64,000 nt of DNA from positions 1 to 64,000 of the forward strand of contig CAYTYR010000012.1 of assembly GCA_964441745.1 (NCBI GenBank), read 5' to 3'. Source of the DNA: an uncultured Clostridia bacterium (lineage in GTDB: Bacteria; CAYTYR01; UBA6262). Each line of letters starts with the position of its first letter. The stretch's first letter is position 1. A program made the position numbers and the translations under genes. The notes below the pieces were generated by a model that saw only the letters and a list, made by a program, of their open reading frames with translations, ran no database searches and was not told the DNA's origin. Below are positions 27,957-56,747 of the stretch, piece by piece.

Positions 27957-28033
27957 TAAGCGTTAAGCGGGTAGCGTTAAGCGTATAGAAAATCTTTTAA
28001 AACTACACGCTATACGCCATACGCTATACGCTG
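27957..28033. repeat. Family A palindromic heptamer element
   Basis: aagcgtt aagcggg tagcgtt aagcgta tagaaaatc...tacacgc tatacgc catacgc tatacgc tg. Confidence 0.9.
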
Positions 28034-28035
28034 AT

Positions 28036-28452
28036 TTAACTATGTACCCTTTCCCCCAGGTATCCGCCCAGAGTACTAAATACTACCATCAAGAACCAAT
28101 GCAGATAATCAAAGCTTTGGTTCTTAAGATAAGGAATTATCCTGTCTAAATTATTAAAAATAGTTTCCCCGGCTTTTAGCGTATTACTAAATCCTGAATA
28201 TTCACCCCAAAAAATAAAGACTATGCCAACCAGTAATCCCATCAGGATACCTTTTTCATTGGCAATGTAGCCGACAAAAAGTCCGCCCAGGAAATAAGCT
28301 ACAATACCCGGCATGATCTTGTAATATTTCATAATCGTTGATTTTTGCTTACTAAAGAATTCGAACATAAAGCCATTCAGGAGGTATACAACAAAAACGC
28401 CTAAACAAATTAAAAAAAGAATACGAAGGATCCCGCTTTTCTTTTTCGCCAT
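28036..28452 (-). CDS. Hypothetical 4-TM membrane protein between hisA and hisF
   Basis: 138-aa hydrophobic ORF ending LGGYLGER; AAGGGG RBS. Confidence 0.7.
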   Translation of the reverse strand: MAKKKSGILRILFLICLGVFVVYLLNGFMFEFFSKQKSTIMKYYKIMPGIVAYFLGGLFVGYIANEKGILMGLLVGIVFIFWGEYSGFSNTLKAGETIFNNLDRIIPYLKNQSFDYLHWFLMVVFSTLGGYLGERVHS

Positions 28453-28476
28453 ACTTTACCCCTTAATGAACAGACA

Positions 28477-28627
28477 GTTTATGGAGCTTAGTTTCTCAAG
28501 CGAACAGAAACTGTAGCCCACAGGGCGTCTGTGAATTAATCCCCGCGTACCTGTCCCCCCTGCCAGTTATGCGCAACAGAACTAGGGGGGATTGATTCGC
28601 AAAGCGAATCTGCAGGGGATATAAACT
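28477..28627. repeat. Cluster of nested hairpins (REP-like)
   Basis: agtttct..agaaact; cccccct..agtt..aactagggggg; gattcgc-aaa-gcgaatc; outer atcccc..ggggat. Confidence 0.65.
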
Positions 28628-28637
28628 TAATTTTTAT

Positions 28638-29360
28638 TTATCCCGCTAATTTAACCGCGTCTTCTAATTTTATAGTTTCCGTATATAAAGCTTTGCCGAT
28701 AACCATGCCCTCGACGCCAAATTCGGCAAGTTCATTGATCTTTTCCACATCTTTGATCGTGGAAATCCCGCCGGCAGCGATAACCGCCACACCGCCTTTC
28801 TGGGCAATGGTCTTAATTCCTTTTAGATTTGGCCCTTCCATCATCCCATCACGCGCTATATCGGTATAAAGGATCTCTTTGACCCCGGCTTCTTTCATTT
28901 TCTTAGCCAGGGCAACAGCATTGATTTCAGTGTCATCTTTCCAGCCGCCAATAGAGATCTTGCCTTTCTTGGCATCAATAGCCACAATAATCTTATCGCC
29001 ATACTTTTTAAGAGCCTCTTCCAATAATGGCGCATCGGTAATAGCAATAGTCCCTAGTAATACCTTGCTGGCCCCGGCCCCAATAACCCTGTCGATCATT
29101 TCCATTTTGCGCATCCCGCCGCCAACCTGGACCGGCATATTCACTTCCTTACAGATCTTCTCGATAATTTCCAGGTTTTGGACTGCCCCGGAAAAAGCGC
29201 CATCCAAATCTATTATATGCAGCCGTTTTGCCCCTTTAGCCTGAAACAACTTGGCAATAAATACCGGGTCCTTGGAATAGATCGTTTCCTGTTCAAGCTT
29301 ACCTTGCTCCAACCTTACACATTGTCCACCACGCAAGTCTATAGCCGGAATTATCATCAT
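28638..29360 (-). CDS. hisA: ProFAR isomerase
   Basis: IPAIDL, VRLEQG, DLDGA, QVGGG, TDIARDG. Confidence 0.95.
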   Translation of the reverse strand: MMIIPAIDLRGGQCVRLEQGKLEQETIYSKDPVFIAKLFQAKGAKRLHIIDLDGAFSGAVQNLEIIEKICKEVNMPVQVGGGMRKMEMIDRVIGAGASKVLLGTIAITDAPLLEEALKKYGDKIIVAIDAKKGKISIGGWKDDTEINAVALAKKMKEAGVKEILYTDIARDGMMEGPNLKGIKTIAQKGGVAVIAAGGISTIKDVEKINELAEFGVEGMVIGKALYTETIKLEDAVKLAG

Positions 29361-29389
29361 AAACAAACTCCTAAACGGTTCCATCGTTT

Positions 29390-30134: not shown

Positions 30135-30210
30135 GCAAATGGCATATGGCTTATGGCATATAGTCTAAACCAAACTATTGCTTTTGCAATATGCTATAAG
30201 CTATATGCGC
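30135..30210. repeat. Family B element (empty); contains the hisB stop
   Basis: gcaaatg gcatatg gcttatg gcatata g..ctattgcttttgcaatat gctataa gctatat gc. Confidence 0.88.
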
Positions 30211-36581: not shown

Positions 36582-37523
36582 CTAAGGGACAACTTCAATG
36601 TCATCGCTGCTTACTTCGACTCTTTCTGCTTCCAGGCGCAATACTTCCTTCAGCGCCGCGATCGCAACTTCTTGCTGTTTGTCATCCGGCGTTTTGGTAG
36701 TCAAATTCTGCAGCCACAATCCCGGAGCGATCAGCATTTTGGTAAATATATTCCTCTTCCGGTCCGCCCATTTAATAATCTCATAGCTAAATCCCGCAAT
36801 GAACGGGATAAAAACAATGCGGATTCCAACTTTTACCAGGGTCTGGTATAGTTTGGGCCATTCCTTGCTGACCGGCACAATAGAGAAGACGATGATCGCC
36901 ACTACCATCACTACCATTAAGAAGGCCGTACCGCAGCGCGGATGGAGCGGCGAATACTTCTGCGTATTTTCCACAGTCAACTCTTCCTTGGCTTCATGGG
37001 CAAAAACAGCTTTATGTTCCGCGCCGTGATACTGGAATACCCTCTTGATATCAGCCATCATGCTAATAACATAGATATAGCCGATAAAGAAAATTATCCT
37101 GATGATACCGTCTATCACATTAAACCAGAATCCGTAACTTACCAGCTTGGCAGTGAGAAAATAAGGGACAATCACGAACAGGCCGATGCCAAAGGTAAAG
37201 GCAAACGCAAAGGTGCTAACCCACATCCAGGTGTTATCTTTCTTTTTTTCTTGCTCTTTCTGCAGTTCCACCATCTGGACATCAGCGGAATAATTCAGGG
37301 CTTTGACCCCCAGGACCAGGCTTTCGACCAATACGACGATGCCCCGCAAAAGGAATTTCTTGAATATGGGGTATTTTTTAGTAATGGATTTTACTTCGTC
37401 AGCTTTAATGACGATCTCACCCTGCGGATTACGGACAGCCACAGCATAGTAATGCGGTGACCGCATCATAACGCCCTCTAAGACAGCCTGGCCGCCTATT
37501 TTAATTTCCTTTGTATCTGCCAA
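36582..37523 (-). CDS. DUF1385 family membrane protein
   Basis: GGQAVLEGVMMR, FQYHGAEHK, HPRCGT; typical rpmE-prfA neighbour; TTG start with GAGGAG RBS. Confidence 0.9.
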   Translation of the reverse strand: MADTKEIKIGGQAVLEGVMMRSPHYYAVAVRNPQGEIVIKADEVKSITKKYPIFKKFLLRGIVVLVESLVLGVKALNYSADVQMVELQKEQEKKKDNTWMWVSTFAFAFTFGIGLFVIVPYFLTAKLVSYGFWFNVIDGIIRIIFFIGYIYVISMMADIKRVFQYHGAEHKAVFAHEAKEELTVENTQKYSPLHPRCGTAFLMVVMVVAIIVFSIVPVSKEWPKLYQTLVKVGIRIVFIPFIAGFSYEIIKWADRKRNIFTKMLIAPGLWLQNLTTKTPDDKQQEVAIAALKEVLRLEAERVEVSSDDIEVVP

Positions 37524-37625
37524 TATATTCTCCTCTACCTGGTACCCGGAACAGGTTTTTTGGTATGTACTAAACAACAAGGACAGAGTTCATCTGTCCT
37601 TGTTGTTGGTACGTATTTAAATAAG

Positions 37626-37943
37626 CTAAGAGTTCTTTTTTTCGGTTTCAGCTGCCGGCGCTTCTTTTTTTGTTTTCTTAGTACTGGCTTTTTCCTTGGC
37701 CGCGGCTTTGGCCTTTTTACCTTTTGCTCTCTTGACCTCACCGGTCTTCTTAGCCATTTTCTTCTGGAATTTTTCCACCATTCCAGCGGTGTCCACCAAC
37801 TTCTGCTTACCGGTATAGAACGGGTGGCAAGCGGAACAGATTTCTACGTGAATGTTTTGCTTGGTTGACCGTGTCGGGTAAGTTGCTCCGCAGGCGCACT
37901 TGATCACAGTCTCCTTATACTCTGGATGTATTCCCTCTTTCAT
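37626..37943 (-). CDS. rpmE: 50S ribosomal protein L31 (Cys-containing type) with Lys/Ala-rich tail
   Basis: [26 protein letters not shown]. Confidence 0.95.
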
Positions 37944-37960
37944 GAACTTCCTCCTCTTTT

Positions 37961-38040
37961 TAGCGGGTAGCGTTAAGCGGGTAGCGTATAGAAAATCAAC
38001 TTGCTTTTCCTATCCGCTATACGCCATACGCTATACGCTA
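37961..38040. repeat. Family A element
   Basis: tagcggg tagcgtt aagcggg tagcgta tagaaaatcaacttgcttttcc tatccgc tatacgc catacgc tatacgc ta. Confidence 0.92.
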
Positions 38041-38047
38041 TTTTATG

Positions 38048-39322
38048 TTATTTTCCATTAAACTCCATCGATTTCAGGAATTCTTTATTGGACTTTGTTT
38101 TGCGTGTTTTCTCCGAGACCAGCTCCATCGCTTCCACCACATTGAGCGGGCTGAGCACTTTCCGCAGGATCCATACTTTGTTCAGTTCTTCTTCACTAAG
38201 CAGTAATTCCTCGCGGCGGGTACCGGAGCGATTGATGTCCAGGGCTGGGAACACGCGCTTGTCCACCAGCCGGCGGTCCAGGATCATTTCCATATTGCCA
38301 GTACCCTTAAATTCTTCAAAAATAACTTCATCCATCCGGGAACCTGTTTCTACCAGCGCCGTCGCTATAATAGTTAAACTGCCCCCTTCTTCAATATTGC
38401 GGGCAGCACCGAAGAATCTTTTAGGCCTTTGCAGGGCATTGGAGTCAACGCCGCCGCTCAGGACCTTGCCGCTTGGCGGCACCGTGGCATTGTACGCCCG
38501 CGCCAGCCTGGTTATGCTGTCTAGTAATATTACCACATCTTTCTTCTGTTCGACAAGCCTTTTCGCTTTCTCTATGACCATTTCCGCTACCTGGATGTGC
38601 CGTTCGCCTGGTTCATCAAAGGTGGAAGAGATCACTTCACCTTTGACCGAGCGCTGCATATCTGTCACTTCTTCCGGCCGTTCGTCGATCAAAAGCACGA
38701 TTAAGACCACTTCCGGATGGTTAGTACTGATGGCGTTGGCTATTTTTTGCAGCAGGATGGTCTTACCGGCACGCGGCGGCGAGACGATCAAACCTCTCTG
38801 CCCTTTGCCAATCGGGGTGAACATATCCATAATACGCATGGATATTTCTTCCTGCTTAGTTTCCAGCGTAAGCTTAGCTTGCGGATAAAGCGGGGTCAGG
38901 TTATCAAATAAGATCCTTTTCTTTATATCATCCGGGTTAGCGCCGTTAACAGCTTCGATCTTGAGCAAGGCAAAATACCGCTCGCCTTCCTTGGGCGGGC
39001 GTACTTGGCCGCTGATAGTATCGCCTTTACGCAGGTCAAACCGGCGGATCTGGCTGGGAGAGACATAAATATCATCCGGCCCAGATAAATAGTTATACTG
39101 GGGAGAACGTAAAAAACCAAAGCCATCTGGTAATATCTCCAGGGTGCCTTCGTCAAACACCAGGCCATTCTTCTCAGTCTGTGCCTGCAGGATCTTAAAG
39201 ATGATCTCCTGCTTTTTCAGTCCGCTGACTGATTCAAGCTTTAGTTCTTTGGCTATGTCCGTCAAATCGGATATAGTCTTTTTTCCCAAGGCAGCCATAT
39301 CTAAAGCGGCGCCATTTTCCAT
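38048..39322 (-). CDS. rho: Transcription termination factor Rho
   Basis: [37 protein letters not shown]. Confidence 0.98.
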
Positions 39323-40080: not shown

Positions 40081-40096
40081 GCTAACCCTTCCTGAT

Positions 40097-40173
40097 GCGG
40101 ATAGCGTTTAGCGGGTAGCGTATAGAAAATCAATTGCTCTTCCTATCCGCTATACGCCATACGCTATACGCTA
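40097..40173. repeat. Family A element
   Basis: Arms identical to the reverse complement of 50613-50691. Confidence 0.92.
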
Positions 40174-40176
40174 AAA

Positions 40177-44249: not shown

Positions 44250-44278
44250 GGTCGGGACCTCATTGTCTTTTTCCGTGT

Positions 44279-45388: not shown

Positions 45389-45400
45389 AGTGATTCTCCG

Positions 45401-45486
45401 TAAGCGGATAGCGTTTAGCGGGTAGCGTATAGAAAATCAACTTGCTTTTCCTATCCGCCATACGCTATACGCTTTACGCCGATTTT
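45401..45486. repeat. Family A element
   Basis: Same spacer gaaaatcaacttgcttttcc as 37961-38040. Confidence 0.92.
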
Positions 45487-46006
45487 AAAGATTCATCCAG
45501 TTCCAGACCTGGCTTTCTTCTTCCGTGAACCAATCACTGGTCTGGGTCAGGTATAAATGGACATTAGCCAAGGCTTCATAATGGGCGTTTTCCTGTTTGA
45601 GCAATTCTTTATAGAACAGTTTTTCATTATTATCCGTAGCTTTGGCCAGGAATTTCTCATACATGACATAACCCTTTTTCTCTACCTCCATAGCCAATTC
45701 TAAACCCTTGATATTATCCGCTAAATGTATTGCCGGATCCTTTTTTACAGAATGGAAATATTCTTTTATGATATATTCCAGTTTTTCCCCTTCTTCCACG
45801 GTCCAGCGCGGCCATTTATTCTCGTGTTTCAGTTTTTCATAGATATCCTCAAACATAATAATATGCTGGATCTCCTGCTGGGCCAATTGGTAAAAAAGCC
45901 GGCGCGACAAGGGATTCTTGGTCTTGGCCGCAAGCTGCAGATACAAGCCTACCCCTCTTCTCTCAAAATCAAGGCTGATCTTCAATGCACTCGGTATCTT
46001 AGCCAT
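45485..46006 (-). CDS. Ferritin-like/rubrerythrin-domain protein
   Basis: Two E-x6-Y...ExxH helix pairs (ERRGVGLY..EIQH; EKKGYVMY..ENAH). Confidence 0.85.
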   Translation of the reverse strand: MAKIPSALKISLDFERRGVGLYLQLAAKTKNPLSRRLFYQLAQQEIQHIIMFEDIYEKLKHENKWPRWTVEEGEKLEYIIKEYFHSVKKDPAIHLADNIKGLELAMEVEKKGYVMYEKFLAKATDNNEKLFYKELLKQENAHYEALANVHLYLTQTSDWFTEEESQVWNWMNL

Positions 46007-46026
46007 ATCTTTCCTCCTGGAAATAA

Positions 46027-46103
46027 GATTACACAGATTAAATAAAAATCCGCCAGAGGCGGACAGGGATTACACAGATTAAAAACTCTAAACCTGCATA
46101 ATC
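46027..46103. repeat. Family E element with nested hairpin tccgcc-aga-ggcgga
   Basis: gattacacagatt ... [tccgccagaggcggacagg] gattacacagatt. Confidence 0.8.
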
Positions 46104-46112
46104 ATTCTCTCC

Positions 46113-46307
46113 CTATTGCTTAATTAATTCAAGCATTTCCTGGGCCAGTTGTATATGCTTGACCTCATCCTGCTTGATCTGCTCTAAGCGGGCAATAATA
46201 AATTCATCCTGTATCTGGCTGATTATCTGGGTGTACAGCTTTAGCGCAATTTTTTCCCGCTCCAGTATATCCTCAAATTTCTTTACGATATTTTCGCTAA
46301 TAGTCAT
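46113..46307 (-). CDS. Small half-ferritin-like (two-helix) protein
   Basis: EREKIALKLY ... DEVKH motif pair in 64 aa. Confidence 0.65.
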   Translation of the reverse strand: MTISENIVKKFEDILEREKIALKLYTQIISQIQDEFIIARLEQIKQDEVKHIQLAQEMLELIKQ

Positions 46308-46533
46308 TTTTTTGTCCTTGTTTGACCTGCTCTATGAGATCCTGGATCATGGTCTTATGCCTTAAACTGTCCTGCTCTAAGATCCTCAAGGAAGCATCGA
46401 TCTTTTTTAAGGAATTTGGGCCCAGGGAGAGATTATCAATTACATTTTGGAAAAAATAGCTCATTAGTGATACGAATTCTTCTTCTATGGTATTAGAGCT
46501 CTGCAGTTGTTTTAGGAGTTCATTCTTATTCAA
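46297..46533 (-). CDS. Small degenerate half-ferritin-like protein
   Basis: IEEE ... DSLRH; overlaps the next gene. Confidence 0.55.
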   Translation of the reverse strand: MNKNELLKQLQSSNTIEEEFVSLMSYFFQNVIDNLSLGPNSLKKIDASLRILEQDSLRHKTMIQDLIEQVKQGQKNDY

Positions 46534-46563
46534 GCCAAATACCTGCTCTTTCTATTAGATTGG

Positions 46564-48051
46564 CTATTTAGGCAAGGCTACTTTGGGCGGGTGTCCAAAT
46601 TCCTGTTCAAATATTTTAGGGAATTCATCCTTAGCGCCAATGAAAGTCATGGTTAACGGCATGGCGCGTTTGGCCTGGTCGCACATTTTGGCAGTTTTTT
46701 TCCTGATCTCCCACTGGGCATGTTCATCTTCGCGCAGGCGGGAGATGTGGTACAGCTCGCGGGCATTTACCTTCATCAGCGCCCGGCGCTTGTGGGCATT
46801 GGTCAGGATATACGGGGCGGCCATTGGGAAGTCAGCATTTATCCGGCGATAAATCTGGTTAGTCTTCTCGATTACTTCCTTAAACTCTTTATCCAGTCCT
46901 GCTTCCACAATAGAATCCGGTATTACCACTCCCAGGTCAGGATCATACTCCTGTGCGGTCATGGTCGCCATCCGATGCCTTTTCAGTTGGGCAAAACAGC
47001 TGGCAGAAACAAATAATTCATAGGTCAGTGAAGGGTATTCAAATTCGCGCAAAGTGGCATCATAGAATTGCAGATGTTGGCAGGCAGTCTTGACAAAATC
47101 TTTTTTTTGTTCGGGTTTCATCAGCCTGACGGATTGCAAACACTGGCGGTAATTAACTTTGGTGGTGGTATGGATCAATGCCGCTATCAATGAATCATCG
47201 GCATGCAGGCTGTATTCCACCAGGTTGACATCACCAGGATAGGACTCTGGCACGATCTGCTGGGAATTGAGGATTGCATGGCTCAGGCTCCTTAAAGCCG
47301 GATAAGTCTTCTGGTCATATTCATTGATATCAGTAAAGATAATTATAGAAGGAGCGACACTACTAACCAGGTTGTACATTTTCCGGCCCAGTTCCTGGAC
47401 TTCCTTAAGGGGATGGCTGGCAAAGCGGCGGATGACCAGCTCCAGGTTACGGGCATTCAGTGTTTCCCCTACCTGGCCGCAAGTCGCCAATGGCGTAATA
47501 TAGCGGGCATCTTCTTTGGCCCATCCATCCAGCAGGCTCTCCTTCTTGGGGTCAGCCGCTTCATTAGGATTTTTTTCCTTAACCTGCTTCTTCAGGGCAG
47601 CGTAACATTTTTTGTAGAAACCAAACTGCAGGCGCACAGTCTCGGAAAATTCCCGGACATGAGCGCTCATTTTAAGTTCTACCGGTATGACATAATCGTC
47701 TGCCAGCGTGATATAACGTTGTGATTTTTCGGTAAAGGAACAGAGCCGGAATTTCTCGATCTCTTCCAGCGCCAGACGGGACACGCCGATAATGTCAAAA
47801 TTGAACACGGCATGTTCAGCCACTGAATGGTGGCCCATTTTAAAAATAATGGCTTTGTTGGACTTACGGGCGCTTTCGACTTCCTGGCGGGCTATCTGCC
47901 GCAGCTCATCGATAGACCTGGGATCACGGCTGATCCTGGCATAAGCAGCAGATAAGGTTTCAGGAGTAACATCGGCTCTGGCTGGATTGCTTTTGGTGAG
48001 ATCTTTTATGACATCAGTATCAAGATTATAACCGGCAAGTAGGATTTTCAT
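46564..48051 (-). CDS. thyX: FAD-dependent thymidylate synthase, tandem-domain type
   Basis: GHHSVAEH, SQRY, EDARY, NARNL in domain 1; QLKRHR, NAREL, HAQWEIR in domain 2. Confidence 0.88.
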   Translation of the reverse strand: MKILLAGYNLDTDVIKDLTKSNPARADVTPETLSAAYARISRDPRSIDELRQIARQEVESARKSNKAIIFKMGHHSVAEHAVFNFDIIGVSRLALEEIEKFRLCSFTEKSQRYITLADDYVIPVELKMSAHVREFSETVRLQFGFYKKCYAALKKQVKEKNPNEAADPKKESLLDGWAKEDARYITPLATCGQVGETLNARNLELVIRRFASHPLKEVQELGRKMYNLVSSVAPSIIIFTDINEYDQKTYPALRSLSHAILNSQQIVPESYPGDVNLVEYSLHADDSLIAALIHTTTKVNYRQCLQSVRLMKPEQKKDFVKTACQHLQFYDATLREFEYPSLTYELFVSASCFAQLKRHRMATMTAQEYDPDLGVVIPDSIVEAGLDKEFKEVIEKTNQIYRRINADFPMAAPYILTNAHKRRALMKVNARELYHISRLREDEHAQWEIRKKTAKMCDQAKRAMPLTMTFIGAKDEFPKIFEQEFGHPPKVALPK

Positions 48052-48066
48052 AATATTGGCAGTCGC

Positions 48067-48447
48067 TTAAGTGGTTGGATTTTCATTAATTGGCTGCTCG
48101 GCCCCCCTCTTTTCCTGCAGTTCCAGATCTGACAGGAAATCAACCAGGACGCTGAGCTTTTTGATATCCATATTCATGAACATAACGCCCAATCGGGTAC
48201 CCTCACCTTCCTGGCCGTTGTAAATGACCCGGGCATTAACCAGGTCTAACAGCACTCCGTTGGGAAGGTGCATATTCATAACTACATAGTTTAAATTCGG
48301 GCACTCATCTTTCAAGAAGATCCTGGCGCCGCCCGCGCTGATATTAGTAACCATCCCGGAATAACCCTGTCCGGGGGCAAAAGCATTAAAAAATTTAACT
48401 GGCACACATGTAGCAAACCTAAAAAACTGCCTTTTTTCCATTGACAT
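48067..48447 (-). CDS. PilZ domain protein
   Basis: EKRQFFR (RxxxR) and NISAGG motifs. Confidence 0.85.
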   Translation of the reverse strand: MSMEKRQFFRFATCVPVKFFNAFAPGQGYSGMVTNISAGGARIFLKDECPNLNYVVMNMHLPNGVLLDLVNARVIYNGQEGEGTRLGVMFMNMDIKKLSVLVDFLSDLELQEKRGAEQPINENPTT

Positions 48448-48460
48448 GATCTACATCCTC

Positions 48461-48566
48461 AGATTACACAGATTTTTGAAAGCCCTGCCTGCCGCAGGCA
48501 GGGATTACACAGATTCAATCAAAAGCTTGTAATCGGTGTAATCTCCTTTAGAAATCGGTGTAATCA
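48461..48566. repeat. Complete family E palindromic element with nested cctgcc-gca-ggcagg hairpin
   Basis: gattacacagatt x2 then aatcggtgtaatc x2. Confidence 0.88.
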
Positions 48567-48569
48567 TTT

Positions 48570-49166
48570 CTATATTTTATACTGACTGCCGACTTCTTTT
48601 AATTTCAGGATCAGAGTTTTTAGCGTCTCTTCTGTTTGTTGTTTTTCCTGGGGAGTAATATTCGGTTTGTTAATGGTGATCAAAGTTTCTTCTACCTTCT
48701 GCTGGATATCCTTTACTTTCTGCCGGTCAGCATCAACCATCCCTTTCAGGCTGTGCATCATCTCGTTAAAATCATCCACCAGGTCCGTGAGTTCGTCCCC
48801 TTTTCTTAACCGCATTTCAAAACTAAGGTCGCCTTTGGCTACATCCAGCAAACATTTTTTCAAGCGGTATAACGGTCCGGCTATCTTGTGGCTCATGTAC
48901 ACGCTGACTATCATCATTAAAACAATGGAGATGGCTACTCCAAAAAATATTTGTTTATCAGTCTGGTCCTTCACCGCATTCAGGAAAGGGCTCCAATCAT
49001 TATACCGGGATTCATTAAGCAATACATTCCAAATGTTTTGATAGATAAAGTAACCTACCACCAGGGACACAAACAGCATGGCAAATAAAACACTGCCTAC
49101 GTAGCGGAATTGCAGGCCACTTGATATGATCAGTCTTTTTCTTCTGTTTTTTACTCTCATTTCCAC
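48570..49166 (-). CDS. HAMP-domain membrane protein
   Basis: Two TM segments, SHKIAGPLYR, GDL...LRKGDEL. Confidence 0.8.
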   Translation of the reverse strand: MEMRVKNRRKRLIISSGLQFRYVGSVLFAMLFVSLVVGYFIYQNIWNVLLNESRYNDWSPFLNAVKDQTDKQIFFGVAISIVLMMIVSVYMSHKIAGPLYRLKKCLLDVAKGDLSFEMRLRKGDELTDLVDDFNEMMHSLKGMVDADRQKVKDIQQKVEETLITINKPNITPQEKQQTEETLKTLILKLKEVGSQYKI

Positions 49167-49204
49167 GGTGTTTCCCCCTAAAATAGGTTAGCTCATTAAT
49201 CATC

Positions 49205-49621
49205 TTACCATTCGTTAATGATATTGCCCTCTTTATCCAAAGCGTTGCAGTCTATTTTCACTTCTCCGCTATTTTCATCATAATACCACATACCGCTGTC
49301 TACCATGACCCTGGTTACTTGCTTGGATGCACGATAGCCAGGGATCCCCAAACGCACACTGGGGAACGGATGTACATAATTTGGTTCCAAATCTTCCAGG
49401 CCGTAAGGATAGTGGCCTCTTTGCAAGTAAAAAAGATTCACGGCTTTGCGCAGGTTTTCCAAAGCGCCGCGGGTGGATTTTTGCTCAGCGTTGGATTGGA
49501 TTTTTAGATAACTGGGGATGATCCAGACAATCAGGACCAGGATGATGGCGATCAAGAAGGTAAAGGCCAGTGAAAAACCACGTTTGTTTCTTAACAACTT
49601 GGGAAGTTTCATTGTTTTCAT
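49205..49621 (-). CDS. Pilin/type II secretion pseudopilin-like protein
   Basis: KRGFSL prepilin-like site (no Glu at +5), hydrophobic helix, YP..LEDL.P.Y. Confidence 0.7.
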   Translation of the reverse strand: MKTMKLPKLLRNKRGFSLAFTFLIAIILVLIVWIIPSYLKIQSNAEQKSTRGALENLRKAVNLFYLQRGHYPYGLEDLEPNYVHPFPSVRLGIPGYRASKQVTRVMVDSGMWYYDENSGEVKIDCNALDKEGNIINEW

Positions 49622-49633
49622 ATCATTCCCTTC

Positions 49634-49805
49634 AAGCTCAAGAGCTGGGATTTGTTATAAGAACCGAGACGAAAAAGCTCAAGATATTTTTGCGCCTAAA
49701 ATATGCGAGCATACTCGCAGAAGTATGTAAGCAGATTTTAGATCACCCGCCACCGAACTTTGGCGGGTTGGCGAATTCCATAATCCAATCCCAGTTCTTG
49801 AGTTT
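49634..49805. mobile_element. Putative MITE with 20-bp terminal inverted repeats
   Basis: aagctcaagagctgggattt versus reverse complement aaactcaagaactgggattg (17/20); internal catact..agtatg and cccgcc..ggcggg hairpins. Confidence 0.6.
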
Positions 49806-49878
49806 AATAGGCTTTGCTGCTTTTTCATTTTAGCAGAATCCGTTTTATAAGTCAAAACATTTTAATTTTGATATTTAA

Positions 49879-50595
49879 CTATTGTTTCCCGATCAAGAGG
49901 CGAAAAAGATTAGTATGCCCCGGGACTTGCCGTGAGCCTGAGCTTTGCCCTACTGACTCAAGGGCCATTTTTGGCAGTGAGCCAAACCCCGAAGATAATT
50001 CCGCTATCAATACTGCTCCCGTCGGTGTAGCCAGCTCCTGTTTGACCGTTGACTGGTAGTAGGGAATTCTTTTCAGCAATTCGGCAGCAGCCGGAGCCGG
50101 CACTGAAAATAGGCCGTGGGCAATTTTGATCGTTCCTGACCCGACATTGACCGGGGAACAAAATAATTTCTTGATCCCCAGCTGGCGCAATCCCCAAACT
50201 ACGCCAACAACATCGATGATCGTATCTAAAGCCCCGATCTCATGAAAATGGACTTCATTGATTTTACAGCCGTGGACTTTAGCCTCGGCCCGGGCCAAAC
50301 TGGTAAATATCCCCTGGCATTTCTTCTTCACTGCCGGCAGCAGTGAGCTCTTACTGATGATTTGGCAAATATCCGGTAAATGCCGCAAATACTGCGGCCG
50401 GTTAACTTTGACCATCAGGCGCGAAGTACTGTTAGCTCCTACCTTGACTTGTTTTGCGGAAATAGAATAGCCGCTGACCGACAGCTTGGCTAATTCCCGT
50501 CTCAAATCCTTAAGATCTAATCCAGCATCAAGCAAAGCTGCCAGGAACATATCCCCGCTGACACCATTGCTGCAATCTAAGTAGGCGATTTTCAT
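49879..50595 (-). CDS. larC: Nickel insertion protein LarC, N-terminal domain only
   Basis: GVSGDMFLAAL, AEAKVHG, VHFHEIGALD, HG..VPAPA, ELATPTG; ends at about 238 aa. Confidence 0.85.
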   Translation of the reverse strand: MKIAYLDCSNGVSGDMFLAALLDAGLDLKDLRRELAKLSVSGYSISAKQVKVGANSTSRLMVKVNRPQYLRHLPDICQIISKSSLLPAVKKKCQGIFTSLARAEAKVHGCKINEVHFHEIGALDTIIDVVGVVWGLRQLGIKKLFCSPVNVGSGTIKIAHGLFSVPAPAAAELLKRIPYYQSTVKQELATPTGAVLIAELSSGFGSLPKMALESVGQSSGSRQVPGHTNLFRLLIGKQ

Positions 50596-50612
50596 TTGGA
50601 AAACCTTCAATG

Positions 50613-50691
50613 TAGCGTATAGCGTATGGCGTATAGCGGATAGGAAAGGCTCTTGATCTTCTATACGCTACCCGCTAAACGCTATCCGCTA
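50613..50691. repeat. Family A element in inverted orientation; contains the larB stop
   Basis: Reverse complement matches the arms of 40097-40173. Confidence 0.92.
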
Positions 50692-51431
50692 TTTTTATTT
50701 ATCAAGCTCGCTACTACTCCCGCACCGAAACCATCATCAATATTCACTACCGTCACATTAGGCGCGCAGCTGTTCAGCATCGCCAGTAAAGCCGCCACAC
50801 CGCCAAACGCCGCGCCATAACCGACGCTCGTGGGAACAGCGATTACCGGCTTATCCACCAACCCGCCTACAACGCTGGGCAAGGCCCCTTCCATACCAGC
50901 TACCACAATTATCACCCTGGCTTGTTTAATTTTTTCCGGTTCATTGAGCAGGCGGTGCACTCCAGCTACGCCCACGTCATAAAGCTTATCTGGTTTTTGG
51001 CCCAGTAGCGCACAGGTAACCGCTGCTTCCTCTGCCACAGGCAGGTCAGCAGTACCAGCGGTAATGATCAGTACGCCCTTTTTCTGGGCCTGCTTGGTAT
51101 GGCGGATAATAAGACACCGGGCCAGTTCATTATAGGCAGCTTCCTTGAATTTTTTCTTTACTGCCTTAAAAACTATCTTATCTGCCCGAGTGGCCAGTAT
51201 ATTTTCCTGATGTTTACACATCTGTTCGATTATTTTGACGATCTGGGGGATGGTCTTACCAGGACAATAGATAACTTCGGGGAATCCCTGCCGCAAATTG
51301 CGATGATGGTCTACTTTAGCGAATCCCAGGTCCCCGCAGGGGAAGTCTTTCAACGCAGCCAGGGCTTTAGCAGGAGAAGTGATGTGGTTTTTTACTTGCT
51401 GTAAAAGCATTTCCAGCTGTTTTCTATTCAT
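50682..51431 (-). CDS. larB: Nickel-pincer cofactor biosynthesis protein LarB
   Basis: AKVDHHR..GFPEVI, AGTAD, DVGVAG, AGMEGAL, PTSVGYG. Confidence 0.93.
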   Translation of the reverse strand: MNRKQLEMLLQQVKNHITSPAKALAALKDFPCGDLGFAKVDHHRNLRQGFPEVIYCPGKTIPQIVKIIEQMCKHQENILATRADKIVFKAVKKKFKEAAYNELARCLIIRHTKQAQKKGVLIITAGTADLPVAEEAAVTCALLGQKPDKLYDVGVAGVHRLLNEPEKIKQARVIIVVAGMEGALPSVVGGLVDKPVIAVPTSVGYGAAFGGVAALLAMLNSCAPNVTVVNIDDGFGAGVVASLINKNSG

Positions 51432-51437
51432 AGGTTA

Positions 51438-51466
51438 ATTATATTAGCTTTCAGGGCTATTGTCAA
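51438..51466 (-). promoter_or_regulatory. Perfect-consensus sigma70 promoter TTGACA-N17-TATAAT directly upstream of larB
   Basis: -35 at 51461-51466, -10 at 51438-51443, only 6 nt before the ATG. Confidence 0.8.
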
Positions 51467-51484
51467 ACTTTAAATTTCTTCGTT

Positions 51485-53332
51485 TTAGAAGTTAAGAACG
51501 ACTTCCAGGGCCCAAGTATCCTGGAAATAGGCATCCTCATCAGCGATCAAATCTGCTTCATCTTCAAACTCATAAACATCACTGTCCCCTAATATATAAG
51601 CAGTGACATAGCTCAGTTGTACTGATATGTTATTGAGAAATTTGTATTTTATCTTCCCATGATATTCCCTGATACCGTCAAAATCCCTATACTTCAGGAC
51701 ATTTTTGTATTTGCCGCCCCCTTCTATCCGGCAGGCCCGGCCTATTTGGTAATCCCCGCTGATAGCCGCATAATCATAAGGAGAGTAATCATTAGAGTCC
51801 TGCAGATAGGTTCGCAGATAATATTTCAGGATCAGATTCCCCCGGTCGTTAAAAGCATATCTTAACGTCCCACTCGTACTGATCTTTTCAGAGCCAGTGT
51901 CTTTCCCAATATTATTATCCTTATAGCGTGATTCCACTGTTAAACCAAGTTTTTGCTGGCCGCGCAGGATGCCGGCAAGAATTATCTCCCGGTCAGTTTC
52001 CTGTCGATTATCATAAACCTTGTAATTACCTGTACTTCTGCTCCAATATACCTGGGCCTGGTGCGTATATTGGTCAAATGAAGTTTTTATCCTGAAACTT
52101 TCCAATACTTGCCAATCTATTTTGCCTAATACCCCTCGTTCATCCCGGCAGCGGAAAACGCTTTGCGGATAATGAAGGGAATAGCTCCCGGCATGCGGGT
52201 TAAGATAATCCAGATCATACTTCCGGTAACTAAGCGCATAGCTTATCCGTCCCAGGTCAAGAGTACTGGCCGCTACTACCCCCTGGCCGTATTTTTGCAC
52301 CTGGCCGATCTCGCCGCACACATTGAGCTGTCCAATATACGAAGAAAAATGAGCGCCATATACCAAAAAGTCCGCATCATCCGTTGGATAGCGCCACGGA
52401 TCAGGGCCTTTTACCGCCCGCTGTGAATAATAACTGGTGATTCCCAATTCTGTCTCAGGCGCCAAATACGACATGATATCCATCCCGCTCACCTGTTCCC
52501 GGAAATACTCTTCCAATGGCTTCCTGATCTCAGCCCCGTTGATGTAAAAACCATAATATCCATTATTCTCATTGGAATAAAACAAGGTTTCCTTGAATCT
52601 ATCCTGTTCCAGGACTACGGCCAGTCCGCGAAAAGTTTTACTGCTTTTGTAGCTAAGCCCCTGCAATAAGGCCTGATGGCTGATCTTTGAGGTCTTATAT
52701 TCCAAAGCTTCTGTATCGCCAGGATAAATACCGGCAGGTTTAGCCTGGCCAGACAAATCTATTACTACCCCTTCCCCAAAACCAACCAGATAGTCGCCAG
52801 CCAGTATTTTTTGTACCACTGTTCCCGGTTCCCAGGAGAGATAATACTTATTCAGCATAAAGGTTTGGTTCCATATTCCCTGAGCCGCCTTACTCCCATC
52901 CACCCGGTAGCGTTCATAATGCGGATACCGTTCCAGCGCCAGAGCGCCGGACCAGCCTGGCTGGAAATTTTTCCAGCGCAGGTGCCATACCTGATAGTTC
53001 CCATTTTCCACATCACTGGTTTTTTTTACTTTTACTTTTAGCATTCCATCCGGTATCTTCACATTATCAGATGTTACCACGCTGATCAAACTGGACCAGG
53101 ATAGCACATCCTGCGCGGTGATCCCTTCCACTTTCAAGAGCTCATCCAGAGTCCGGAAAGAGCCGAATACTTTCCGGTATTCCATGATCTTGTACGCCTG
53201 ATACCGGTTAATACCCGGTAATTTCAGCAGTTCTTCATAAGAGGCTGTATTGATATCCTGCCCCCCTATTCCCGTTCCTGCCCAGTACAGTAAAAAACAT
53301 ATGGCCAAACTTAACCTGAGCCTGCTCTTCAT
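51485..53332 (-). CDS. ComEA-type helix-hairpin-helix domain fused to a probable outer-membrane beta-barrel
   Basis: Signal peptide; DINTASYEELLKLPGI...GSFRTLDELLKVEGI; aromatic-rich strands; C-terminal Phe. Confidence 0.75.
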   Translation of the reverse strand: MKSRLRLSLAICFLLYWAGTGIGGQDINTASYEELLKLPGINRYQAYKIMEYRKVFGSFRTLDELLKVEGITAQDVLSWSSLISVVTSDNVKIPDGMLKVKVKKTSDVENGNYQVWHLRWKNFQPGWSGALALERYPHYERYRVDGSKAAQGIWNQTFMLNKYYLSWEPGTVVQKILAGDYLVGFGEGVVIDLSGQAKPAGIYPGDTEALEYKTSKISHQALLQGLSYKSSKTFRGLAVVLEQDRFKETLFYSNENNGYYGFYINGAEIRKPLEEYFREQVSGMDIMSYLAPETELGITSYYSQRAVKGPDPWRYPTDDADFLVYGAHFSSYIGQLNVCGEIGQVQKYGQGVVAASTLDLGRISYALSYRKYDLDYLNPHAGSYSLHYPQSVFRCRDERGVLGKIDWQVLESFRIKTSFDQYTHQAQVYWSRSTGNYKVYDNRQETDREIILAGILRGQQKLGLTVESRYKDNNIGKDTGSEKISTSGTLRYAFNDRGNLILKYYLRTYLQDSNDYSPYDYAAISGDYQIGRACRIEGGGKYKNVLKYRDFDGIREYHGKIKYKFLNNISVQLSYVTAYILGDSDVYEFEDEADLIADEDAYFQDTWALEVVLNF

Positions 53333-53363
53333 TTTCCGACTTTCTTCTATATTCTTAGTTTTT

Positions 53364-53429
53364 AATCTGTGCTGCGCCCGCCCGGCTTTTTGGCGGGTAA
53401 TCAGAGATTGTTGGCAAGCCAACAATCTC
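53364..53429. repeat. Family E unit with GC hairpin insert plus a 12-bp perfect hairpin
   Basis: aatctgtg[ctgcgcccgcccggctttttggcggg]taatc; gagattgttggc-aa-gccaacaatctc. Confidence 0.8.
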
Positions 53430-53506
53430 AAATAAAAAACCATACTTAGCTCATCAAAGAGATGAATTAAATATGGTACTTCTTTCCCTATATATTTATT
53501 AGCTGC

Positions 53507-54163
53507 TTAATACGGCTTGTTCTTTTCCTGCAGCAGCCTGATGATCGCCCTATTCCTGTTCTCCGCGGCCAGCATCAAAGAGTTCTTGCCATCATTCGTT
53601 TTCACTCCCAGGTCAGCATCCCGATCCATCAGCAGTTTTACGCTTTCCACAGAATCAGCCTGAATCGCATACATCACCGGGGTAAAGCCTTTATAATCTT
53701 TGGCATTCACATCAGCGTAGTTCTTTAGCAAAAATTCAATTATATCCGTGTCAGATTCCCTGGCCGCGATCATCAGGGGAGTAGCCCCAACATTATTCTT
53801 GATATTCACATCAGCGCGATAGTTCACCAACAAGCGTACCACTCTCATCTGTCCGACTTTCACCGCCAGGATCAAAGCAGTATTGCCATCCGTATCCTTA
53901 ATATTTATATCCGCGCCTTTAGTGACCAGCAGTTTGACGACCTTATCCTGGGCCCTATTAATGGCAAACATTAAGGGGGTCCAACCATTGTCCCCTTGCA
54001 TATTAAGATCTGCCCGCTCAGCTACCAGCTGGCTGATCGCTTCATAATCATCGGTTTTGATAGCGTCGATCAGGTTCTTGCCCTTGAATTCAAGTCCATG
54101 TATGGCAATATAGCTTATCATGACTAAAATAATGCAGCCGACAAGATAGAATGCTTTTTTCAT
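53507..54163 (-). CDS. Ankyrin repeat protein with N-terminal anchor
   Basis: Repeated G.TPLM.A...ADVN motifs. Confidence 0.9.
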   Translation of the reverse strand: MKKAFYLVGCIILVMISYIAIHGLEFKGKNLIDAIKTDDYEAISQLVAERADLNMQGDNGWTPLMFAINRAQDKVVKLLVTKGADINIKDTDGNTALILAVKVGQMRVVRLLVNYRADVNIKNNVGATPLMIAARESDTDIIEFLLKNYADVNAKDYKGFTPVMYAIQADSVESVKLLMDRDADLGVKTNDGKNSLMLAAENRNRAIIRLLQEKNKPY

Positions 54164-54171
54164 TTTTACCT

Positions 54172-54963
54172 CTAAATTTTCTGTTCTTTGTGTAACGGGA
54201 AACTAAGCGCGATAGCCTCAAAGATCCCGGCTAAAATTGCTCCCAGGTAGTAAATCCACCATTGGTTGGGGATCTTCCAAATGACGACCATGAATCCGGT
54301 AAATAACATGCTCAAGCCAAAACTTAATACTGCCAATCCCTGAAAAATCAGTTTTTTCGGCATATTATCATAAACGCTGTCTTTGGGAAATACAATTGAC
54401 CGCCAAAAACAGAAGATACCCAACATAACCATCGCTAACACCGGATCATTCACCCTGATCAAAAACAAAATAGGCATCAGATTCGGGTCCGGATTACTAG
54501 GATGGAACCATTTGCCATCATAAAAAGCATAGCCGCCAATGCGGAAGATTTCCATCGAACCGCCGATCGCCCGGACATTGACAAAAACAAAAGCTATAGA
54601 TAGGAGTATCCCGATCCCAAAAGCCAGCCAGGTTGTGCTCTTTTTTATTTTTTCAAATCCCAGGGCAAAACTGGTTAAACCAATAAAAACTGCCGGGGCA
54701 AAAAGACCGATCATGATGAATTCCCGGATATTATTCACAATTAAGGGAGCGGGATGCGGCCCTAAACATATCTGCAATGGACGGGTCATCAAAAATATAC
54801 CAAAAAAAATAAATCCCCAATACGCGCCTTTATAGGTGATATCACCGGTCACCAGTTTGCGCAAAGGAGCAATATAAGCAATATACTTGGCCAGGAAAAA
54901 ATAGGTTAATCCCGCTATCACCGGCATGATCAGATTTTCTAACACCAGCCAAAAAATAGTCAC
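54172..54963 (-). CDS. Hypothetical polytopic membrane protein (about 7 TM)
   Basis: 263-aa hydrophobic ORF in operon. Confidence 0.75.
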   Translation of the reverse strand: MTIFWLVLENLIMPVIAGLTYFFLAKYIAYIAPLRKLVTGDITYKGAYWGFIFFGIFLMTRPLQICLGPHPAPLIVNNIREFIMIGLFAPAVFIGLTSFALGFEKIKKSTTWLAFGIGILLSIAFVFVNVRAIGGSMEIFRIGGYAFYDGKWFHPSNPDPNLMPILFLIRVNDPVLAMVMLGIFCFWRSIVFPKDSVYDNMPKKLIFQGLAVLSFGLSMLFTGFMVVIWKIPNQWWIYYLGAILAGIFEAIALSFPLHKEQKI

Positions 54964-54966
54964 TGC

Positions 54967-55584
54967 TTAGGGTTCCTCGCTTTGTACCACAGCATATTTA
55001 GTAATGATCGCTTTTTCTACAGCTTGTTTCAACGGCTGGCTAGTCAACTCAAATTGTTTCACCCAAACACCGTCTTTGGCTTTGCGTCCCGGCCAGGCTA
55101 TCCATAATCCGCTGGCTGAATCCATTACCCTGGCTTCTACTCTGACCGCATTATTAAAGATAATTGAGACAAAGGCTTTTAATTGGCTATCCTTGGCCCT
55201 GTATTTATTTATTTTAGCTATTTTATAAACAATGTCAACTGCTTTTTCAGTACTGGATCGCTGTTCGGCTGCAGCTTTCTTGATTTCCTCACCGAGTTTT
55301 TGGTTTTCTATGACTATTTGCGGTATCGCTCTTTCCTGTTTACTGACATATTCAGGATAAACCAGAGTGATGATTCCCGAGCGAGACTCCCGGTTCATTT
55401 TAATCTCCCGGATCACCAGGTTATTATTCAAGGTAACGGCTGCTGTCTGCTTACCATCCACTGTTTCCACAACCACTGCGGTAACCTTGGTCACTGGTTC
55501 AGCGGCAAACACAAAGACCGTTAGCAGTTGGCCGATCGCCGTTAGCAGTAATATATTAAATAATTTACTTTTTATCTTATACAT
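54967..55584 (-). CDS. Signal-peptide protein with two SpoVG-like domains
   Basis: AAVTLNNNLVIREIK and LKAFVSIIFNNAVRV..RVMDSASGLWIAWPGRK..DG resemble SpoVG. Confidence 0.65.
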   Translation of the reverse strand: MYKIKSKLFNILLLTAIGQLLTVFVFAAEPVTKVTAVVVETVDGKQTAAVTLNNNLVIREIKMNRESRSGIITLVYPEYVSKQERAIPQIVIENQKLGEEIKKAAAEQRSSTEKAVDIVYKIAKINKYRAKDSQLKAFVSIIFNNAVRVEARVMDSASGLWIAWPGRKAKDGVWVKQFELTSQPLKQAVEKAIITKYAVVQSEEP

Positions 55585-55586
55585 CT

Positions 55587-56456
55587 TTAATACTCGGTTT
55601 TCACCTGATAGCTGAGCCCATCAGTGCTGACCGTTATTGTTCCTTTCCTGGCAGTGGCCAAATATGGTATCCCTGCCCGTTTCAGCCGCTTCAACATTTC
55701 CGGATGCGGGTGACCAAAGGAATTGTTCCGGCCGTAGGAGATTATGGCCAGCTCCGGCTTGACCCCATTCAGGAAGCTGGCACAGGAAGAATTTCTTGAG
55801 CCATGGTGAGCAATTTTTAATATTGTTGAGTGCATCATCTCACTATGCCTGGACAGTATTTTCCGTTCTGCCGCCTGGCCGACATCAGCTGCCAGCAGGA
55901 AACTTACTTTCTTATAGGTGATCTTGATCACCATTGAATTGTCATTAGGATTATTAAATCTTTTTGGCGATGGATTGAGCGCCAGGACCTGCAAGGAAGG
56001 TCCGAAATCCAGTTTATCTCCGGCACTGGCCAGGCGATACCTGATATTTTTCTCCTTCACTATCTGCAACAGCTTAATATATTCATCATCTGTAACCCCG
56101 CCCCCGCCTTCCAAGGTATCGACAAATTCCCCTACTGGATAAGCAGATAGGACATCGATCAAACCATCCATGTGGTCGGTATGGCCATGAGTCAGGATCA
56201 CAATATCCAGTTTTTTGATTTTTTTCTTCTGCAGGAAGGGATTGACTATCCTGTCCCCAATACGATATGACAGCTTCCGGTAGGCTGGTACGCCGCCGCC
56301 GTCAATGAGGATATTTTTCCCATCAGGGGCCTCTACCAGAATACTGTCACCCTGGCCGACATCAATAAAAGATACGACCAGGTCCCGGGCAAAAGCAGAG
56401 GAGAAGTACAGGAGGGAAAGCAATACAGCGATCAGTAATTTATTTCTTCTGGGCAT
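55587..56456 (-). CDS. ComEC/Rec2-like metallo-beta-lactamase domain protein (exported)
   Basis: FIDVGQGDS, THGHTDH, NDNS, HHGS, FGHPH. Confidence 0.9.
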   Translation of the reverse strand: MPRRNKLLIAVLLSLLYFSSAFARDLVVSFIDVGQGDSILVEAPDGKNILIDGGGVPAYRKLSYRIGDRIVNPFLQKKKIKKLDIVILTHGHTDHMDGLIDVLSAYPVGEFVDTLEGGGGVTDDEYIKLLQIVKEKNIRYRLASAGDKLDFGPSLQVLALNPSPKRFNNPNDNSMVIKITYKKVSFLLAADVGQAAERKILSRHSEMMHSTILKIAHHGSRNSSCASFLNGVKPELAIISYGRNNSFGHPHPEMLKRLKRAGIPYLATARKGTITVSTDGLSYQVKTEY

Positions 56457-56676
56457 TTTTCTTCAGCAGTTCAGCTTGCAGGTCTTTGATTTTTTTCTTT
56501 TGCGTTTTTTCAACTTTTTTATTCAGGGCCATAGCGATATCAATACAAGCGCCCTCATAAACTCTTAAAGGCAGGTTAGCCACTGGAATTACCAGCTCTC
56601 CCCCGCCTCTGATCCTGATCACCGCTATTCTGCCGTCCTCTATCCGGTCAACAATGCCTAACACCTGGAACTCCAA
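56440..56676 (-). CDS. DUF3006-like small protein
   Basis: VDRIED..AVI...LP...EG pattern; adjacent to the ComEC-like MBL gene. Confidence 0.7.
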   Translation of the reverse strand: MEFQVLGIVDRIEDGRIAVIRIRGGGELVIPVANLPLRVYEGACIDIAMALNKKVEKTQKKKIKDLQAELLKKNAQKK

Positions 56677-56682
56677 TCCTGA

Positions 56683-56747
56683 GGCGTATAGCGTATAGCG
56701 TTTAGAAAGGCTTTCCTATACGCTTAACGCTACCCGCTAAACGCTTA
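56683..56747. repeat. Family A element, inverted orientation; contains the proB stop
   Basis: ggcgtat agcgtat agcgttt agaaaggctttcc tatacgc ttaacgc tacccgc taaacgc tta. Confidence 0.88.

Follow-up and report, generated by a model that had tools for sequence, protein, structure and literature searches.

Heptamer-array palindromes between genes of an uncultured Clostridia bacterium: candidate ORF-less miniatures of a PF05635-encoding, IVS-type cassette

In cyanobacteria, the short tandemly repeated repetitive (STRR) sequences consist of tandem heptamers that are restricted to intergenic DNA, and several families occur per genome. To our knowledge, neither paired inverted arrays nor a link with PF05635 proteins has been described for the STRR sequences. 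According to the excerpted text of one report (PMC4990558), the Coxiella 23S rRNA gene's intervening sequence (IVS) is a 428-nt selfish element, whose terminal inverted repeats make up a 28-bp stem that is cut by RNase III, and three tandem heptamers, variable in number among strains, lie just upstream of its S23p open reading frame (ORF); in the same excerpt, the authors leave its origin and mobility open. An excerpt of a second article (PMC10053308) describes PF05635 as resembling Avd and as otherwise uncharacterised, while part of a third (PMC11270868) places the PF05635 domain in insertions of the 16S and 23S rRNA genes of candidate phyla radiation (CPR) bacteria. Here, we describe a family of palindromic heptamer arrays, termed family A, in the first 64,000 nt of a contig from an uncultured Clostridia bacterium (GenBank assembly GCA_964441745.1, contig CAYTYR010000012.1; this whole stretch is hereafter called the window). 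On balance, the six full family-A copies in the window seem to be ORF-less miniatures of a small selfish IVS-type cassette bounded by inverted heptamer arrays.

An earlier note on this DNA had reported six copies built of TAGCGTA/TACGCTA-like units, and all six, with lengths of ~65-81 bp, are present where that note had placed them, four in one orientation and two as reverse complements. An alignment of these copies (A1; ~90 columns, mean column identity 77%) was used to build the profile for an nhmmer search of the host genome (G000; 2.07 Mb, 39 contigs, 44% G+C, 98% complete), of which the window is contig C12. Matches of at least 40 bits were taken as full copies. The arrays found in the window are as follows.

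27957..28034, plus strand: full element without an ORF, 69.2 bits, with a loop of its own; in the gap between a hisF-like gene (27188-27943) and a DUF3792-like gene (28036-28452).
37961..38041, plus strand: full element without an ORF, 89.6 bits; in the gap between rpmE (37626-37943) and rho (38048-39322).
40097..40173, plus strand: full element without an ORF, 91.5 bits; in the gap between coaE (39499-40080) and fpg (40177-40998).
45401..45479, plus strand: full element without an ORF, 89.3 bits; in the gap between a suhB-like gene (44576-45388) and a rubrerythrin-like gene (45485-46006).
50613..50691, minus strand: inverted full element, 89.7 bits (minus strand); between a Ni-insertion-domain gene (49879-50610) and an AIRC-domain gene (50682-51431).
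56683..56747, minus strand: inverted, shorter full element (3+3 to 4 units), 63.6 bits; adjoining a proB-like gene (56745-57851).
8335..8363, minus strand: family-A half element with one arm; on the transcribed strand, AGCG-type units and TATAG, followed by the ribosome-binding site of the next gene.
7816..7840, minus strand: lone arm with CTGTACG units, belonging to a sister heptamer family and not to family A proper.

The genes flanking the six full copies are all on one strand, as had been stated, namely the minus strand, and the outer unit of the 50613 copy overlaps the end of the called AIRC-domain ORF (50682-51431). The loops are 14-22 nt long, and none encloses an ORF. When the 50613 copy is reverse-complemented, its arms are base-for-base identical to those of the 40097 copy, whereas the loops differ. 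A spacer said to be common to the copies at 27957, 37961, 40097 and 45401 does not extend to 27957. Similarly, of the two half-sites that had been proposed, the one at 8335-8363 is a true family-A half element, whereas the one at 7816-7840 belongs to the sister family.

The copies resemble one another far more closely than their repetitive composition would predict. With at most one mismatch, TAGCGTATAG occurs 43 times in the window, as compared to 2.8 on average and at most 8 in 100 dinucleotide shuffles. The order of the arm units, read from their variable triplets, has an identity of 0.661 among the six copies, as compared to 0.383 when the units are shuffled within the arms and 0.399 when they are drawn from the pool (0/5000 reaching the observed value in either model), and the loop similarity is 0.605, as compared to 0.357 after shuffling (0/1000). 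These results agree with the earlier proposal that the order of the heptamers is copied as a block and does not reflect independent slippage, and they indicate that the loop is copied along with it. The low-complexity 7-mer model, which the note had named among the findings that would overturn its proposal, fails to explain this degree of likeness.

In the host genome, the search yielded 122 matches at 70 loci, including 31 full copies. A full copy is composed of (TAGCGNN)x3-5, TATAGRAAA, a 14-22-nt loop and (NNCGCTA)x3-5, and the number of units per arm varies among copies and species. Read in the sense of transcription, all of the full copies share one layout: a stop codon, a few A-rich bases, 3-5 AGCGNNN units, TATAG(A/G)AAA, the loop, TTTCTATA, 3-5 CGCTNNN units, a few bases, and the next gene's ribosome-binding site and start codon. 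They begin ~0 to ~5 nt from the upstream stop and end ~10-20 nt short of the next start, and co-directional genes flank 30 of the 31. Their orientation relative to transcription is 19:11 (two-sided binomial p ~0.2, by our own arithmetic), in agreement with the earlier statement that orientation is independent of transcription. The search for target-site duplications that the note had recommended revealed no clear one, either at the 31 full copies or at filled versus empty orthologous sites, although a TA duplication could be hidden by the TA...TA ends of the element. Further single-arm arrays are located inside called ORFs (13) and between divergent or convergent genes (2); some of the apparent solo arms belong to full copies whose partner arm is degenerate.

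The six copies are predicted to fold on both strands, with energies of -26.5 to -37.2 kcal/mol and z-scores of -2.8 to -5.7. The predicted stems consist of 4-5-bp AGCG/CGCU blocks with 2x2 internal loops between them. The sense-strand tail of the family-A elements is a ribosome-binding site and not a T-run. An intrinsic-terminator reading was rejected: none of the five family-A sites in 37400-57300 was flagged, but the scan accepts loops of 3-8 nt and thus excludes the longer family-A loops by definition. Searched at the gathering score, Rfam gave no match in the window.

The earlier note had suggested looking for copies that enclose an ORF, and this proved to be the key check, since one family-A copy encloses a PF05635 gene. 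At G000:C13:21107-21516, a family-A 5' arm with TATAGAAAA is followed by a 118-aa ORF, CCTATA and a family-A 3' arm, within which the stop codon of the ORF sits. The encoded protein belongs to PF05635 (23S-rRNA-intervening-sequence protein, four-helix-bundle, Avd-like) with 140 bits, and its orthologue in G004, one of the five congeneric genomes compared (G001-G005), scores 139 bits for PF05635 and 35 bits, under the cut-off of 40, for bAvd. Among the G000 family-A arm pairs located 120-5000 bp apart, this ORF is the only clean one bracketed by the arms: the only other pair (C6:52461-54962) has a degenerate left array with two ordinary ORFs inside, and no transposase was found between the arms of any pair in this range.

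The ORF-bearing copy is joined to the ORF-less ones by its sequence and by its orthologues. In alignment A2, its first ~47 nt match the ORF-less window copies nearly base for base, over the stop-proximal A-run, the arm and the first ~12 nt of the miniature loop, and, by eye, the last bases before its 3' arm resemble the second half of that loop. At the orthologous locus, the gene is intact in G004, while G003 retains both arms and ~125 nt of the 3' part of the ORF, which directly abuts the other arm; no arrays are present in G002 (a gap of 36 bp) or in G001 and G005 (~60 bp). The matching junction, together with the internal deletion in G003, is the pattern expected from miniatures arising by internal deletion.

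The association between PF05635 genes and heptamer arrays extends beyond family A. All seven PF05635 genes of G000 adjoin heptamer repeats, six of them on both sides, and the repeats represent six families: TAGCGNN, TATGGCN, AACTCGC, AAATTCT (two genes), AAAACTC and GGAAGTA. We scored the 5' flank of each gene against the reverse complement of its 3' flank, and among the 1909 scorable genes of G000, the PF05635 genes rank 2, 4, 14, 18, 21, 33 and 966; by our own arithmetic, the chance that six of the seven fall in the top 33 is ~2e-10. The RAYT (repetitive extragenic palindrome-associated tyrosine transposase) genes, a natural positive control, rank 1, 3, 22 and 36. A flank score of at least 24 was reached by 14/19 PF05635 genes in the five congeners, as compared to 0/15 control ORFs of the same loci, and by 8/15 PF05635 genes in unrelated genomes, as compared to 0/29 controls. 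One of the G000 genes lies in the window.

24487..24840, minus strand: PF05635 gene, 114.2 bits, flank rank 14/1909, with TATGGCG / TATAGCT-type arms.

This gene represents a sister heptamer family in its ORF-bearing form. Two blocks of a 37-bp tandem repeat lie upstream of the gene, at 24853-24976 and 25077-25195 (93-98% matches), with a 100-N run between them; the assembly probably broke inside the 37-bp tandem array (window 24451-25211).

The orthologous sites in the congeners, in which the flanking genes are 75-94% identical to those of the window, provide a measure of the age of the copies. The pattern AGCGNNNAGCGNNNAGCGNATAG occurs 73 times in G000, 16, 60, 46 and 53 times in four congeners, and not at all in G002 or in the other genus of the family; among 34 more distant genomes, it was found in G012 alone (three times), and a backwards-read control gave no match in any genome. 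Of the 25 possible site-by-genome comparisons, 10 revealed a full family-A element, one a single arm, and 14 another family, other sequence or a short array-less gap. By site (start position in the window, matching positions in brackets), the findings are as follows.

27957: same orientation in G003 (73/77); G001 and G004 with a different heptamer palindrome; G002 with an empty gap of 25 bp.
37961: present in G004 (81/81), G003 (74/79) and G005 (75/78); other repeat families in G001 and G002.
40097: inverted in place in G003 (71/76) and G004 (66/69); palindrome of GTTGATA units in G002.
45401: orientation unchanged in G004 (69/77); G001, G002 and G003 with other families or none.
50613: opposite orientation in G004 (73/79); one arm (30 bp) in G003; 20-bp gap in G002.
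56683: orientation unchanged in G004 (58/61) and G005 (60/62); G001 and G003 with heptamers of other families.

Three of the ten full elements, those at 40097 in G003 and G004 and at 50613 in G004, are thus inverted as wholes, loop included, and the inversion events that had been proposed are real. The proposed recency of the events is not borne out, since copies 90-100% identical stand at the orthologous sites of congeneric species, and the family-A copies are therefore older than the species splits. These comparisons show that family-A copies undergo inversion, replacement and loss.

Similar arrays are also present in other phyla. A scan for AGCGNNNAGCGNNNAGCGTATAGRAA that covered one genome per species gave at least 117 loci. 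Among the matches listed, most are in metagenome-assembled genomes (MAGs) titled Omnitrophota, and others are in Planctomycetota (several orders), Atribacterota, one Clostridia MAG and, by synteny, MAGs of this genus, with single matches in several other phyla. Within the same set, 45/119 have a partner arm of at least three units within 90 nt (37/105 outside this genus), and many TAGCG arrays lead into a ribosome-binding site and a start codon. At L100, L111 and L142, in MAGs titled Kaiserbacteria, Omnitrophota and Planctomycetales, respectively, the array is directly followed by a Pfam-confirmed PF05635 ORF (115.6-123.9 bits), and at L084 (Omnitrophota) the same PF05635 N-terminal stretch follows the array, by eye only. 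In the unrelated genome G012, a further TAGCG array directly precedes a PF05635 ORF.

In a quick maximum-likelihood tree of 39 PF05635 proteins (rows of ~85 aa or more, omitting the fragments L185 and L190, the broken genes L180, L181 and L196, and also L207, L208 and L214), five of the six TAGCG-armed proteins fall into one clade of six (SH-aLRT 89), whose sixth member has arms of TAGCGAC-type units with the opposite polarity. A separate clade (99) is made up of the proteins with AT-rich heptamers. The TAGCGNN label changes twice on this tree, as compared to a mean of 5.8 for shuffled labels (0/500 as low), in a comparison where the labels were assigned by eye and orthologues inflate the clustering of arm and protein. 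No paper linking dispersed heptamer palindromes to PF05635 genes was found in the literature searched, which excludes most subscription journals.

If the six copies are indeed derived from such a cassette, then the cassette would be an IVS-type element that resides in mRNA spacers rather than in rRNA helices. It would spread as a unit by DNA-level copying or conversion without target duplication, and the four-helix-bundle protein would be its putative nucleic-acid-binding factor. On the polycistronic mRNA, the arms are predicted to form a ~30-bp duplex, interrupted at regular intervals by 2x2 internal loops; RNase III, whose gene is present in G000, would cut this duplex as it does the stems of rRNA IVSs, and the element would then be tolerated only in the gaps between a stop codon and a ribosome-binding site. 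This confinement of the copies and the precedent of the rRNA IVSs suggest that the arms pair once transcribed, and that they are processed or, at a minimum, tolerated in such gaps. The miniatures probably form RNase III-type hairpins in mRNA.

Several observations weigh against this interpretation. No transposase or recombinase is associated with the family-A element, in addition to the lack of a visible target-site duplication. The family-A-type PF05635 gene was found in G000 and G004 only, and G001, G003 and G005 (91-94% complete) carry 16-60 family-A arrays without it, so that any dependence on the protein is either not current or undetected. Flank scores below the threshold were obtained for one of the seven PF05635 genes of G000 (rank 966), 5/19 in the congeners and 7/15 in the unrelated genomes, and the by-eye labelling of the protein tree belongs here as well. 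In its excerpted text, the Coxiella report expresses doubt about the in vivo production of S23p (PMC4990558). On the sense strand, 29 half elements are of the AGCG type and 7 of the CGCT type, an asymmetry that the cassette model leaves unaccounted for; however, nearly all genes of each G000 contig are on one strand (61/62 ORF calls of C12 are minus), so that transcription and replication direction are inseparable in strand-bias arguments, including this one. Complementarity between the two arms at their variable triplets (0.43/0.30/0.55) is below that of shuffled partners (0.49/0.36/0.64), and selection for arm complementarity at these triplets was rejected on this basis. A perfect hairpin is accordingly not what is kept, and the two family-A arms are therefore distinct ends and not a drifting perfect palindrome. 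Finally, the retained orthologous elements, at 90-100% identity, are more conserved than their flanks at 75-94%, and the same slot is occupied by different heptamer families from one species to another; both features would also fit a host function of the type "any hairpin here".

The main competing explanation develops this last point. It supposes that the host selects hairpins in intercistronic slots for mRNA processing, end protection, attenuation or antisense block, and that PF05635 genes land in, or are stabilised by, these palindromes, in which case the arrays would be landing pads and not remnants. The excess conservation, the exchange of unrelated families within a slot and the 29:7 strand bias are all compatible with it, as is the A-rich run preceding the hairpin, by which the antisense strand carries a hairpin and a T-run. 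On the other hand, G002 has short array-less gaps at two of the six sites (25 bp at 27957 and 20 bp at 50613), and the slots thus do not require a hairpin. Furthermore, the loops of the ORF-less copies agree with the ORF-bearing copy at its 5' junction, the ORF was deleted between intact arms in G003, the same arm sequence accompanies a related protein subfamily across phyla, and none of the five scanned family-A sites is terminator-like, with a ribosome-binding site instead of a T-run at the sense tail. We consider host-selected slots unlikely, although they are the most serious alternative. The prospect that the arrays are elements of the REP (repetitive extragenic palindrome) or BIME (bacterial interspersed mosaic element) type, mobilised by the RAYT-type Y1 (IS200-like) transposases of this genome, appears improbable. 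G000 has eight PF01797 matches, and the arrays, like REPs, are palindromic, intergenic, multi-copy and present in both orientations without target duplication; however, the Y1 genes have different flanking repeats of their own, on which their high flank ranks rest, none adjoins TAGCGNN heptamer arrays, and family-A arms bracket just one clean ORF, that of the PF05635 gene. The RAYT link was rejected because of the other repeats beside the Y1 genes. An ordinary miniature inverted-repeat transposable element (MITE) of a DDE transposon, whose terminal inverted repeats happen to be heptamer arrays, would likewise be short, multi-copy, present in both orientations and variably present between species, and its TA duplication could be hidden by the TA...TA ends. 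We regard a MITE as highly improbable: arms contain differing numbers of units, their variable positions are systematically non-complementary, arms of this kind enclose no transposase gene in G000, and no clear target duplication was detected. Least credible of all is a model in which a favoured 7-mer multiplied independently at every site by replication slippage, the copies being unrelated by descent: the variation in unit number between copies and species and the many heptamer families of this genome are in its favour, but the shuffle tests contradict it, with unit order and loops shared far beyond the shuffled models, and whole elements, loop included, are common to different loci and to other phyla.

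Besides family A, the window and the host genome contain further repeats and genes, given below.

5613-5729, 17337-17433, 19446-19519, 30135-30200; 2786-2816, 13792-13833, 41441-41588; 16399-16466: heptamer palindromes of other families (GCTTATA/TGCCATA, AAATTCT and GGAAGTA types), occupying further window gaps.
21607-21700, 26715-26780, 48448-48569, 59825-59885, 13843-13886: dispersed family of GATTACACAGATT / AATCTGTGTAATC-like units, likewise in inverted groups.
G000:C8:5393-6343, C22:25806-26810, C1:182315-183265, C1:186341-187129, C6:4808-5548, C8:48189-48851: RAYT-like Y1 genes (PF01797).
L061, L079, L080, L086-L088, L101, L104, L122, L127, L131, L145, L156: loci in Atribacterota-titled MAGs in which a TAGCGNN array with TATAGRAAA abuts a second array (GTAATNA / GTGATAA type), with no simple loop.

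Family A is one of many heptamer families in G000. Strict period-7 runs number 163 in 146 kb of intergenic DNA (1.116 per kb), as compared to 36 in 1.8 Mb of coding DNA (0.02 per kb), and are present in 129/1457 gaps of the genome and 13/51 gaps of the window. The GATTACACAGATT/AATCTGTGTAATC-like family forms a perfect 21-bp x 2.9 tandem array at 59825-59885 and, in G002, occupies the slot between rpmE and rho, where the window has family A. In the Atribacterota-titled MAGs, arrays of different heptamer families can apparently be nested or juxtaposed. Some of the RAYT-like Y1 proteins are 260-335 aa long, and several of their genes have short repeats of their own, of the GACCCCATTG type or the CCACC..GGTGG hairpin type; the Y1 genes and these repeats are a second, classical REP-like system in G000. 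In the gap between polA (41589-44249) and the gene at 44576-45388, ~250 bp of non-coding sequence (44271-44521) has many matches in 5/5 congeners, with 72-97% identity, and is a separate multi-copy element or RNA, without an Rfam match at the gathering score. At 5730-7796, an ORF for a 688-aa NAD-dependent epimerase/dehydratase is split by an insert that may be an intein (Intein_splicing 33.7 bits, with a cut-off of 35.8). The contigs of four public metagenome runs over 37400-57300 end at several repeats, and joints seen in single run contigs (40173 to 50694, and an "opposite strands" joint at 40011/40165) were not counted as evidence. In practical terms, heptamer repeats break metagenome assemblies, and the family-A slots mark intercistronic sites that tolerate ~80 bp of foreign structured sequence.

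The PF05635 / S23p proteins and the rRNA IVSs have been known for about thirty years with neither a function nor a means of movement assigned to them, and the intergenic tandem heptamers of bacteria are likewise unexplained. A gene between inverted arrays, with a heptamer proper to its subfamily and gene-less copies in the gaps between stop codon and ribosome-binding site, joins the two puzzles and makes them testable. A bolder and quite speculative extension, which we would not expect to hold in full, is that PF05635 proteins are sequence-specific readers of tandem heptamers, each subfamily with its own "address", so that a protein and two inverted arrays would constitute an undescribed class of minimal mobile element. 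Such a class could have seeded gene-less palindromes across phyla (Omnitrophota, Planctomycetota, Atribacterota and this lineage), and might explain the rRNA IVSs and the cyanobacterial STRR sequences.

Among the known systems, the diversity-generating retroelements (DGRs) share with this one a homologous fold family, that of PF05635 and the accessory protein Avd. However, no reverse transcriptase (PF00078, RVT_1) was found in G000, and a template/variable repeat pair is lacking; a DGR link was rejected owing to the absence of the reverse transcriptase. Like REPs, BIMEs and the REP doublets known as REPINs, the family-A copies are short imperfect palindromes, multi-copy, intergenic within operons, present in both orientations, and found as singlets and inverted doublets. 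Unlike them, the family-A copies have arms made of heptamers in tandem, in place of one palindrome of 20-40 nt, and the gene between the cognate arms encodes a four-helix-bundle protein instead of the Y1 transposase of the REP/RAYT system. The tandem heptamers of G000 are mostly intergenic, as are the cyanobacterial STRR sequences, from which family A differs in sequence and lineage.

The closest counterparts are the rRNA IVSs with an S23p / PF05635 ORF, as in Leptospira and Coxiella. Family A resembles these in its terminal inverted repeats with a predicted long stem, in the single small ORF for a PF05635 four-helix-bundle protein enclosed by one copy (C13), and, as in the Coxiella IVS, in the tandem heptamers that adjoin this ORF. 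It differs in that the copies lie between protein-coding cistrons and none is in an rRNA helix (the G000 assembly contains no 23S rRNA gene), in that the element is multi-copy (70 loci) and has mostly lost the ORF, and in that both arms are whole heptamer arrays, with many heptamer families coexisting in one genome. Cutting by RNase III is known for the IVS side only. As the six copies in the window are ORF-less, we file them as derivatives of the IVS type rather than as strict members.

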